From an uncultured Alphaproteobacteria bacterium (lineage in GTDB: Bacteria > Pseudomonadota > Alphaproteobacteria > RF32 > CAG-239), in contig CALXVV010000039.1 in assembly GCA_944392205.1 (NCBI GenBank), positions 2,368 to 66,367 of the forward strand: a stretch of 64,000 nt of DNA, read 5' to 3'. The position numbers and the translations under genes are program-made. Positions 57,778 to 58,663 of this stretch are shown here, one piece after another. Every line of letters begins with the position of its first letter. The first letter of the stretch is position 1. The notes beneath the pieces are model-generated. The model was not told the origin of the DNA. It saw only the letters and a program-made list of their open reading frames with translations, and made no database searches.

Positions 57778-57816
57778 AGATATTTTGCAGTTTTTTCTAA
57801 AATATACAAAAATGTC

Positions 57817-57845
57817 TTGACAAAACTTGTTTTGGGGGATATACC
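57817..57845 (+). promoter_or_regulatory. Sigma70-type promoter inside the ORF-free gap
   Basis: TTGACA (57817-57822), 17 nt, TATACC (57840-57845); same TTGACAAAAyTT context as other promoters in the window. Confidence 0.45.
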
Positions 57846-57851
57846 CTGTTT

Positions 57852-58169
57852 AGTTTATTAAGTTTTTAGATGAATTGTGTTTTAGTCAGAGGTGATAATT
57901 TGGGTTCGTGCTTTTGGAATTCGCTACTCTAACCTCACGGTTTCCTTCTTCACCTCTGACTTTTTGAAAATATAAAAACCCGGCCTTTCATGATAGCTTC
58001 TTTCGGCCCGGTTTCGGAGAATGTGTTACCCCTTTGTTGTTTTACCTGCAGATGCTCTTCTTTGTAAAGATGCGGTGTCTCTGGAAAGCAAATCGCGGCT
58101 AACCCTTCTCCTTTTTTTTCAGCCAATTTTGAGGAGAACAACGTTGTGAAACGGTATCTCCTCTTTTTT
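57852..58169 (+). ncRNA. Candidate novel small RNA(s) 1: either ~115 nt ending at 57965 or ~315 nt ending at 58169
   Basis: Perfect 12-bp stem AGTCAGAGGTGA (57884-57895) / TCACCTCTGACT (57950-57961) + T5. Second terminator GAGGAGA (58131-58137) / TCTCCTC (58157-58163) + T6. CU-rich stretches CCTTCTTCACCTC, CCTTCTCC. Confidence 0.35.
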
Positions 58170-58194
58170 ATTTTAAAATTCTCTAAAAAAATAG

Positions 58195-58225
58195 TTGACA
58201 AAATTTCAGAAATATGTTTTATAGG
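58195..58225 (+). promoter_or_regulatory. Possible second sigma70-type promoter in the gap
   Basis: TTGACA (58195-58200); weak -10 candidates TTTATA / TATAGG 17-19 nt downstream. Confidence 0.35.
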
Positions 58226-58229
58226 CAGT

Positions 58230-58655
58230 ATTCAAATAGATTACTATGCCTACAATTATACAGATATACAGAGAACCGGGGATTAACCAACCAACTAACC
58301 CCAACTTTAAAACTTCAAAAAAGCCTCGGTTCTTTTTTTATATAAAAGGTTCTGCACCGCACATAGCTCTTTTCATAGCGGAATAGTTTTTTTGCTATTG
58401 CCGTGTGGAACCTTTTCAAAACTTGCCGGAACGGAAACATTCTAACCATAACGCCATTGTATTGTATTTTGTATTCGTTTCTGTTCCGGCGCCCTACGGA
58501 GCATCCTACCGCTTCGGCTGTAGTTTGGCTCCGAAACTTTGCCAAGTGGGTTTTGGGTTACCCTGCTTGGCTTCCCAAACTGGTTTCAAACCAGTTCTTT
58601 CTTTAGCCATAAACCCGAAGCACCTCATGTCGTGAGACACGGGTGCTTTTTTTTG
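58230..58655 (+). ncRNA. Candidate novel structured RNA 2: ~110-nt 5' module plus ~308-nt multi-helix body
   Basis: AGAACCG / CGGTTCT (58272-58278 / 58327-58333) + T7 around a CA-rich loop. Then helices 58348-57/58403-12, 58425-38/58477-90, UUCG hairpin 58506-23, GCCAAG/CTTGGC 58541-46/58566-71, AACTGGTT/AACCAGTT 58578-96. Confidence 0.4.
58618..58655 (+). terminator. Strong plus-strand intrinsic terminator with GNRA-capped stem
   Basis: AAGCACCTCATGTC-GTGA-GACACGGGTGCTT + T8 (58647-58654). U-run only on plus strand, so it does not serve the convergent dut gene. Confidence 0.7.
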
Positions 58656-58663
58656 TTTAATTC

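Follow-up and report, generated by a model that had tools for sequence, protein, structure and literature searches.

Small regulatory RNAs (sRNAs) of alphaproteobacteria, such as AbcR1/AbcR2 (alpha-r15) and the alpha-r14/CcsR 'cuckoo' arrays, are ~60-120 nt long and contain one to three hairpins with C/U-rich anti-Shine-Dalgarno (anti-SD) loops. CsrB/RsmZ and CrcZ carry many copies of one motif, which consists of GGA loops or A-rich CA motifs. Few bacterial non-coding RNAs (ncRNAs) exceed ~300 nt and contain many co-varying helices. OLE, ROOL, GOLLD, raiA, and HEARO are such large 'ornate' RNAs, whose functions are unknown or have only recently begun to emerge, and each such class found so far has led to unexpected biology. 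In this study, we analyzed a gene-free gap at positions 57778-58663 of a 64-kb stretch of DNA (hereafter, the window) from an uncultured gut alphaproteobacterium (contig CALXVV010000039.1). The gap contains two units, designated RNA A and RNA B, which are very probably genuine structured RNA genes. Among bacterial structured ncRNAs, a known category, they represent a new family. Taken as a whole, the gap probably holds two adjacent plus-strand structured ncRNA genes that form this new family and act in trans via invariant loops.

The locus resembles those of AbcR and alpha-r14 in having adjacent same-strand RNA genes within one intergenic region, each with its own predicted promoter and Rho-independent terminator. 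The units are also paralog-like, and short conserved motifs are located on stem-loops. Unlike these sRNAs, RNA A and RNA B are 320-430 nt long with 7-8 helices, their CU-rich stretch is paired, and their invariant loops are UUUGGGUU and UGCCAU. Their unusually large size, multi-helix and strongly co-varying structure, narrow lineage, and comparative discovery in a long intergenic region are shared with OLE, ROOL, GOLLD, raiA, and HEARO. As in the case of OLE and oapA, they adjoin a conserved gene for a small polytopic membrane protein, an association that here is one of synteny. They differ from these five RNAs in lacking any sequence or structure match in Rfam and in forming two units with separate predicted promoters, and they are smaller than OLE, ROOL, and GOLLD. 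CsrB/RsmZ, CrcZ, and 6S RNA are comparable in that they are free-standing genes of 180-430 nt with a strong promoter (here a predicted one) and terminator, common paralogs, and exposed loop motifs, whereas in RNA A and RNA B each conserved motif is found only once or twice per RNA, and there is no 6S-like rod.

Two predicted transcription units in a conserved gap

Tiling of stop-to-stop open reading frames (ORFs) indicated that the gap, at 886 bases, is the largest ORF-free stretch of the window, as the original prediction had claimed, and that the next-largest real gaps are ~430 and ~420 bp. A listed 730-bp gap was rejected because it is really a 282-aa ORF. The prediction had described the region as a cluster of unrecognised structured RNAs, and the motifs it listed (both TTGACA boxes, a 12-bp stem, a GAGGAGA/TCTCCTC hairpin, a stem enclosing a CA-rich loop, a 14-bp stem, a UUCG hairpin, and a GNRA-capped terminator) are all present where it placed them. 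Conservation, covariation, and the absence of an Rfam family support the cluster, although it has only two conserved predicted promoters and is better explained by two transcripts than by four or five independent RNAs.

We interpret the gap as two plus-strand transcription units, RNA A followed by RNA B, which would be synthesized as the predicted primary transcripts described here; no further conserved -35 box is present in the gap, hence the number two. RNA A (57852-58169, plus strand) is ~318 nt long. Its predicted promoter (57817-57845) is composed of the -35 box TTGACA (57817-22), a 17-nt spacer, and the -10 box TATACC (57840-45), with a predicted start at ~57852. Its terminator (58131-58169) has an outer 7-bp stem GAGGAGA/UCUCCUC and an inner 4-bp hairpin CGUU-GUGA-AACG, followed by U6. 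RNA B (58230-58657, plus strand) is ~428 nt long, and its predicted promoter (58195-58223) is composed of TTGACA (58195-200), the spacer AAATTTCAGAAATATGT, and the -10 box TTTATA (58218-23) after TG, with a predicted start at ~58230. The RNA B terminator (58617-58657), with an outer stem GCACCU/GGGUGC, an inner hairpin UGUC-GUGA-GACA, and U8, directly adjoins the stop codon of dut, the gene converging on it.

Relatives of the locus (L numbers below) were found as contigs encoding homologs of the 240-aa ORF that lies upstream of the gap. A gene-free gap is present at the same position in ~14 distinct metagenome-assembled genomes or contigs of uncultured gut Alphaproteobacteria, with the 240-aa ORF upstream and dut or mazG downstream. 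It is ~0.9-1.05 kb long in most relatives and ~0.5 kb in the L014/L034 clade. The exceptions are L013, L016, and L017, in which other genes directly follow the 240-aa ORF and the RNAs are absent. The aligned gaps display two invariant TTGACA boxes, near-identical blocks, variable hairpins, and indels of any length, which is a pattern typical of RNA genes. Unit B is 89% identical to that of L010, compared with 82-86% for the neighbouring coding DNA, which points to purifying selection acting on the nucleotide sequence as such. The comparison of homologous loci, which had been proposed as a check on the prediction, thus revealed strong conservation, and covariation as described below.

In a gapless alignment, TTGACA is present in 23/23 promoter regions, with a T-rich -10 box at a fixed distance and mostly preceded by TG. 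For RNA A, the -35 TTGACA is invariant in 10/10 unit-A orthologs, and the T-rich -10 box again lies at a fixed distance, mostly after TG. For RNA B, the pattern TTGACAAAATTTnnnAAATrTGTTT is near-invariant in 13 aligned unit-B orthologs, including relatives whose flanking ORF is only ~50% identical, and the 28-nt promoter pattern has one match in the window at <=3 mismatches versus 0 expected. The RNA B spacer, AAATTTnnnAAATrTG, is an imperfect inverted repeat (ACAAAATTT-N3-AAATATGT) that is near-invariant across all clades. Because this spacer is far more conserved than a spacer requires, its sequence suggests an overlapping regulator-binding site. In L008, a 66-bp tandem duplication (5118-5190) doubles the RNA B promoter.

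Both terminators are G+C-rich short-loop hairpins followed by a U-tract, which is the form of Rho-independent terminators. They align with each other round a near-invariant G-N-G-A loop, and the motif GTYGWGARAC has only two sites in the 64-kb window, in the RNA A terminator and at 58629. The RNA B terminator is kept in 12 aligned unit-B orthologs, and its inner stem co-varies. The hairpins called by a terminator scan were all of the short-loop type, and the RNA B inner hairpin (58630-42) with its T-run was among them. Of the several terminators in the original prediction, those at 58131-58169 and 58617-54 hold. The long-loop hairpins HA1 (57884-57966) and HB1 (58270-58339) were not called by the scan, and their 54-nt and 42-nt interiors are atypical for terminators. 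Partial termination at the hairpin and U-run of HA1 and HB1 may nevertheless yield shorter isoforms. The promoters, U-tracts, and G-U pairs all agree with the plus strand, and minus-strand matches of the covariance model were weak and limited to one RNA B helix, H1.

The number and type of RNA genes differ between clades, as judged from L015, which has two B-type units, and L014 and L034, which have one. The tandem B-type units of L015 (4723-5170 and 5176-5600) were detected with model R1 at 21.8 and 44 bits, respectively, and no recognisable A-type unit is present there. L014 and L034 each carry a single unit only.

Covariation and absence of coding signal

Covariation was assessed in three tests, namely model R1, model R2, and the terminator inner stem. 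Covariance-model alignments were used because MAFFT combined with RNAalifold is unsuited to long stems owing to length variation. Model R1 covers H1-H3 of RNA B (58422-58574); among its 11 sequences, 94.4% of cells are paired and 29/39 pairs show compensatory changes. None of 500 shuffles scored as high, and slid registers were only 28-46% paired. Model R2 covers HA2-HA3 of RNA A in 7 near relatives, with 98.7% paired and compensatory changes in 7/23 pairs; none of 500 shuffles was as high on four of five measures. Among 21 terminators of both units, the inner stem is 95.2% paired with compensatory changes in 4/4 pairs, and its loop is near-invariant G-N-G-A. Model R1 detects nearly all RNA-bearing relatives searched (28-164 bits among the 11 aligned sequences). 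It gave a weak score or none in the L011/L031/L032 clade, from which H2 is missing, and did not detect L014.

Substitution patterns were obtained from pairwise alignments with five relatives. Substitutions at the first, second, and third codon positions versus L010 are 30/9/87 in the 240-aa ORF and 9/5/53 in dut, a clear third-position bias, compared with flat distributions of 25/26/26 in unit A and 11/17/15 in unit B. Units A and B contain many indels whose lengths are mostly not divisible by three, and the flanking ORFs have one in-frame indel. Since the substitutions lack codon periodicity and the indels are mostly not multiples of three, both units are non-coding. Small proteins encoded in the gap were rejected on the same flat substitutions and indel lengths; in addition, the ATG in GGAGAATG is not kept in L011/L028. 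The units thus combine compensatory base changes with the lack of a coding signal, as is expected of structured ncRNA genes.

Structure of RNA B

RNA B has a predicted minimum free energy (MFE) of -134.5 kcal/mol (z = -7.6 vs dinucleotide shuffles). Its elements are arranged in the order HB1, HB2, H1, H2, H3, a variable H4, and the terminator, and orthologs that were each folded alone gave the same helix plan. HB1 (58270-58339, plus strand, as are all elements below) has a 12-bp stem AGAGAACCGGGG/CCUCGGUUCUUU and a 42-nt unpaired CA-rich loop including UAAAACUU, followed by U7; in the sequence, the stem reads as GAACCGGGG/CCTCGGTTC round the 42-nt CA-rich loop, then T7. The orthologs have a 9-16-bp stem of differing sequence with a 32-60-nt loop. 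The U-run is missing from the L011/L028 clade; therefore, termination at HB1 is not a conserved property. HB2 (58344-58416) is a long hairpin (AAAAGGUUCUGCACCGCA/UGCCGUGUGGAACCUUUU). It occurs in all 11 orthologs that have the region, with differing arms (e.g., AGCUUCGCA/UGCGAAGCU in L011), and is absent from the short units L015a and L034.

The three helical elements of model R1 follow. H1 (58424-58491) is a 14-15-bp stem (58424-38/58477-91) with (U)GCCAU in its apical region, and the apex reads YUGCCAW in most orthologs. It corresponds to R1 helix 1, in which 13 of the 14 pairs have compensatory changes and 95.9% are paired. H2 (58497-58533) has an outer stem CGGAGC/GCUCCG round the hairpin CUACCGC-UUCG-GCUGUAG (58506-23); these are R1 helices 2 and 3, with compensatory changes in 4/6 and 1/6 pairs, respectively, and 94-98% pairing. 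H3 (58541-58571) is a hairpin (GCCAAGUGGGU/ACCCUGCUUGGC) with the loop UUUUGGGUUA. As R1 helix 4, it has compensatory changes in 11/13 pairs. The only non-T-rich 6-mers common to 13-14 of the 14 unit-B sequences are TTGGGT, TGGGTT, and TTTGGG, which are words of the UUUGGGUU loop. The small hairpin H4 (58578-58596; AACUGGUU-UCA-AACCAGUU) is clade-specific; it is present in the window, L008-L010, and L002 and is replaced or absent elsewhere.

The original prediction had also raised a pseudoknot between TTTGGG and CCCAAA. Inspection of the aligned sequences by eye showed that the window, L010, L009, L002, L004, and L037 could form 5-6 bp, but not L006, L011, L028, or L015. The pseudoknot is limited to this clade of nearer relatives, and the H3 loop is invariant. 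We do not claim a closing helix between the 5' and 3' ends of the MFE fold (58245-52/58604-11), which is AU-rich, mismatched, and not clearly kept in L002/L037. A kissing interaction of the CA-rich HB1 loop with the UUUGGGUU loop was rejected, as its z values of -0.3 to -2 were no better than those of composition-matched shuffles. In L008, an insertion located just past the RNA B terminator (5654-5761) matches the IS200-associated RNA STnc490 of Rfam (68 bits).

Structure of RNA A and its relationship to RNA B

RNA A has a predicted MFE of -91 kcal/mol (z = -4.3 vs dinucleotide shuffles), and its helix plan recurs in each ortholog folded separately. The order of elements is HA1, HA2, HA3, a UGCCAU-apex hairpin in many relatives, and the terminator. 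HA1 (57884-57966) has a perfect 12-bp closing stem (57884-95/57950-61) round a structured 54-nt interior and is followed by U5. Its arm AGTCAGAGGTGA (57884-95) matches the reverse complement of TCACCTCTGACT (57950-61) at every base, and the T5 run follows TCACCTCTGACT in the DNA. The closing stem UCAGAGG...CCUCUGA and the U-run are present in 10/10 orthologs. HA2 (57976-58014) is a CCCGGCC/GGCCCGG hairpin with a conserved GCUUCUUU loop; in the R2 alignment, its 7 pairs are 100% paired, with compensatory changes in 3. It is missing from the L011/L028 clade. HA3 (58016-58111) is a long-range helix (GGAGAAUGUGUUACCC/GGCUAACCCUUCUCC) corresponding to R2 helix 2, whose 14 pairs are 97.9% paired with compensatory changes in 4. 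The 6-mer words CUCUGA, CAGAGG, and UUCUCC are common to the RNA A sequences, and UUCUCC is present in 10/10 orthologs.

An anti-SD role had been suggested for the CU-rich stretches, on the assumption that they are single-stranded. We found no support for it, because these stretches lie within conserved helices: CCUUCUCC (58103-10) is the 3' arm of the co-varying HA3 helix, where it pairs with GGAGAA, and CACCUC lies inside the 12-bp HA1 stem. The HA3 loop contains a ~55-nt insertion hairpin (58037-58091) in the window and L010 only. Downstream of HA3, L002, L004, L011, L028, and L037 have a long UGCCAU-apex hairpin that has been lost in the window.

The overall plan, the predicted promoter type, an early hairpin with a U-run, and the terminator module are common to RNA A and RNA B, as is, in most relatives, a hairpin with UGCCAU at its apex. 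Model R1 scored only 3.7 bits on unit A of L004, and RNA A is thus not detectably B-like in this model. Tandem duplication followed by divergence is the likely origin of the two units, since their terminators share the G-N-G-A inner hairpin and L015 carries two B-type units.

Search for known families and other origins

Rfam 15 (4227 covariance models) was searched with the whole window. At gathering thresholds, only a transfer-messenger RNA (tmRNA) and two tRNAs were found. The search, which had been proposed as a check on the prediction, gave no family match in the gap at gathering thresholds or at E <= 10, where the nine sub-threshold matches (10-21 bits) are all far below gathering. The gaps of ten orthologous loci likewise gave no match at gathering thresholds. 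The models searched included 6S, RNase P, signal recognition particle (SRP) RNA, alphaproteobacterial sRNAs, OLE/ROOL/GOLLD/raiA/HEARO, riboswitches, and ribozymes. AbcR/alpha-r15 and other alphaproteobacterial sRNA families had no match at E <= 10, and the UUCUCC of RNA A is paired with GGAGAA. Repeats of the Csr/Rsm or CrcZ type are absent: each conserved 6-mer is present in one copy, and each RNA contains 0-4 GCCA motifs.

We also considered that the units might be a highly diverged housekeeping RNA (6S, RNase P, or SRP) that the Rfam models fail to recognise. Such an RNA would share the strong-looking promoters, stable structure, and narrow-clade conservation seen here, and 6S, RNase P, and SRP were not found elsewhere in the 64-kb window. 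However, in agreement with the original prediction, which recognised no RNase P, 6S, or SRP signature, none of the three matched the gap at E <= 10. Both units fold as a row of separate hairpins, without the rod and central bubble of 6S, the P4 core of RNase P, or the domain IV motifs of SRP. Furthermore, the alpha-type tmRNA in the window was detected at 203 bits, and thus the RNAs of this lineage are not generally beyond the reach of Rfam. Two paralogous units, with only one in some relatives, would also be unexpected for such genes. We regard a diverged housekeeping RNA as highly improbable.

Mobile origins were examined as well. A plasmid origin was rejected because there was no blastn match in PLSDB, and a phage origin was rejected because the H3 motif is absent from IMG/VR. 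In the phage-origin check, the 18-nt UUCG-hairpin motif had five exact matches. A metagenome protein-pattern scan found no relatives, and a promoter-pattern scan found 10 AT-rich loci, none of which matches model R1.

Proposed mode of action

We propose that RNA A and RNA B would be made as stable free-standing transcripts whose action in trans would depend on short invariant loops, single-stranded and exposed by co-varying stems. The candidate loops are UUUGGGUU on H3, (U)GCCAU at the H1 apex, and the ~40-nt CA-rich loop on HB1, which would base-pair with target RNAs or bind a protein. A trans-acting regulatory or protein-binding role via the invariant loops (UUUGGGUU and UGCCAU) appears most likely for both RNAs. 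Base-pairing riboregulation in particular is a plausible if still tentative form of this role. The features of base-pairing sRNAs that are present here are the invariant single-stranded loops and, at the end of both units, a hairpin with a U-tract.

Several points weigh against this proposal. The transcripts and their 5' and 3' ends are predicted from sequence, and no target or partner of either RNA was identified. The complement of the H3 loop has 7 matches in the window versus 9.2 expected and is therefore not enriched. At 320-430 nt, both RNAs exceed typical base-pairing sRNAs in size and are more ornate. A strict sigma-70 consensus scan called neither promoter because the -10 boxes TATACC and TTTATA deviate from the consensus; the evidence for these predicted promoters is accordingly their conservation and not the scan. 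The covariation of RNA A is based on 7 sequences only. Finally, pairing is inflated by the fitting of the covariation alignments to the model structures, although the slid and shuffled controls still lie far lower.

Both RNAs might instead function in ribonucleoproteins (RNPs) or sequester proteins, having compact tertiary folds that bind a protein without pairing to mRNA; the protein could be a global regulator or, as with OLE and OapA, the product of the adjacent 240-aa ORF. The complexity of the RNAs (7-8 helices, 320-430 nt) fits this idea, as do a near-invariant GNRA tetraloop in both 3' modules, of the kind that makes tertiary contacts, and invariant loops without complementarity to Shine-Dalgarno sequences. 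The 240-aa membrane ORF also adjoins the RNAs in all RNA-bearing loci. However, this adjacency may reflect no more than synteny between relatives that are fairly close, and the ORF is present without the RNAs in L013, L016, and L017. A repeated binding motif of the CsrB/CrcZ type is absent, and neither OLE nor any other Rfam family matches. On balance, such a function is unlikely.

We consider it more doubtful still that RNA A and RNA B constitute a new class of large, tertiary-folded RNAs that do not pair with mRNA, acting either as a membrane RNP with the adjacent LtaS-type transmembrane (TM) module or as a catalytic or ligand-binding RNA. In that case, tertiary or protein contacts would be made by the conserved GNRA-capped 3' module together with the invariant loops UUUGGGUU and UGCCAU. 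In the membrane RNP version, RNA genes would now stand in for a lost sulfatase domain, both in the genome and in function.

The locus provides two large RNAs side by side in a poorly known lineage of uncultured gut alphaproteobacteria, with clear boundaries, two working covariance models, and candidate functional loops. With hundreds of orphan RNA motifs already in the catalogue, RNA A and RNA B add a solid candidate for a new family and overturn nothing.

The downstream region and a possible leader function

The gene downstream of RNA B in the window is dut (58664-59140, minus strand), which encodes a dUTPase (PF00692, E = 1e-18) and is followed by thyA and folA; this gene order recurs in relatives, some of which have mazG instead of dut. 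As the original prediction had pointed out, dut converges on the last terminator, and the RNAs are not leaders or riboswitches of the next gene, which is a convergent dut in the window, L006, L009, and L010 and a convergent mazG in L004. Many relatives have a small basic plus-strand ORF of 98-132 aa between the RNA B terminator and dut, which is absent from the window. It is located at L002:6751-7047, L011:5571-5939, L014:5105-5452, L015:5678-6076, L028:2927-3259, L031:4115-4438, and L034:3753-4091. No Pfam family matches the small ORF, and its close homologs number only two among 5.8 billion proteins. In the relatives examined for it (L011, L015, L028, L031, L032, and L034), it is preceded by its own promoter-like sequence TTGCAT...TATAAT, and a terminator also separates it from the RNA.

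This ORF raises the question of whether the units are cis-regulatory leaders or attenuators of a plus-strand gene that survives in relatives and has been lost in the window. Its position right after the RNA B terminator in L002, L011, L014, L015, L028, L031, and L034 would suit such a function, and the early hairpin and U-run of each unit could be an attenuator. However, the window, L004, L006, L009, and L010 keep both RNAs without the ORF, with dut or mazG converging on them, and RNA B ends in a strong conserved terminator. The promoter-like site of the small ORF, where examined, and the lack of a match to any riboswitch family also argue against a leader, which we consider very unlikely.

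The upstream gene and the sulfatase domain

The 240-aa polytopic membrane ORF (57055-57777, plus strand) flanks the RNAs and is not part of them. It has no Pfam match. In the more distant relative L017 (4001-5887), the same TM module is fused in frame to a PF00884 sulfatase domain, and a HMMER search with the 240-aa ORF against all proteins gave 578 relatives, some of ~225-270 aa and others of ~620-680 aa. From the L017 fusion and the two size classes, the 240-aa ORF is evidently the N-terminal TM module of an LtaS/sulfatase-family protein, here standing alone. Its 16 homologs are 222-242 aa long with 51-97% identity, and its substitutions are biased toward the third codon position, with a single, in-frame indel (18 bases, in the L002 copy). 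By these comparisons, the ORF is a conserved gene of constant length under purifying selection and not a truncated or decaying one; the narrow length range of the 16 homologs speaks against a truncated wreck.

This relationship bears on the idea that the gap is the decayed sulfatase half of an LtaS-like gene, in which hairpins and promoter motifs occur by chance. Full-length family members of the upstream ORF do carry a C-terminal sulfatase domain, and the gap of 0.9-1.0 kb is approximately the size of the missing domain. Nevertheless, when the sulfatase domain of L017 was compared with every orthologous gap by tblastn (word size 2, E <= 100), a check raised with the original prediction, no colinear similarity was found in any gap, only non-colinear scraps with E > 1 (best E = 1.8). 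The gap is at least as conserved as the neighbouring coding DNA, lacks codon periodicity, and shows compensatory pair changes, and the 240-aa ORF is under purifying selection at constant length. Decay is thus effectively refuted, and we give it next to no credence. The sulfatase domain was lost before the RNA-bearing clade arose, and the RNA genes now sit where the domain would be encoded. The locus is easily misannotated as a decayed gene, which is corrected here.

Other neighbouring genes

A MazG-family gene (PF03819) occupies the dut position upstream of thyA-folA in three relatives (L004:6699-7091, L005:3931-4323, and L037:2630-3022). This looks like a non-orthologous replacement between nucleotide-pool-sanitising enzymes. 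The tmRNA of the window (61192-61547, 203 bits) is of the alpha-type two-piece (permuted) form and lies ~2.5 kb from the RNA cluster. It is kept in the scanned relatives L002, L004, and L006, where it is located just upstream of sspB (PF04386). In L005, a 113-aa ORF (6505-6846) with a PF05635 (23S_rRNA_IVP) match and a weak bAvd match lies between a 155-aa ORF and sspB. A gut-metagenome contig carries the same dut protein as the window.

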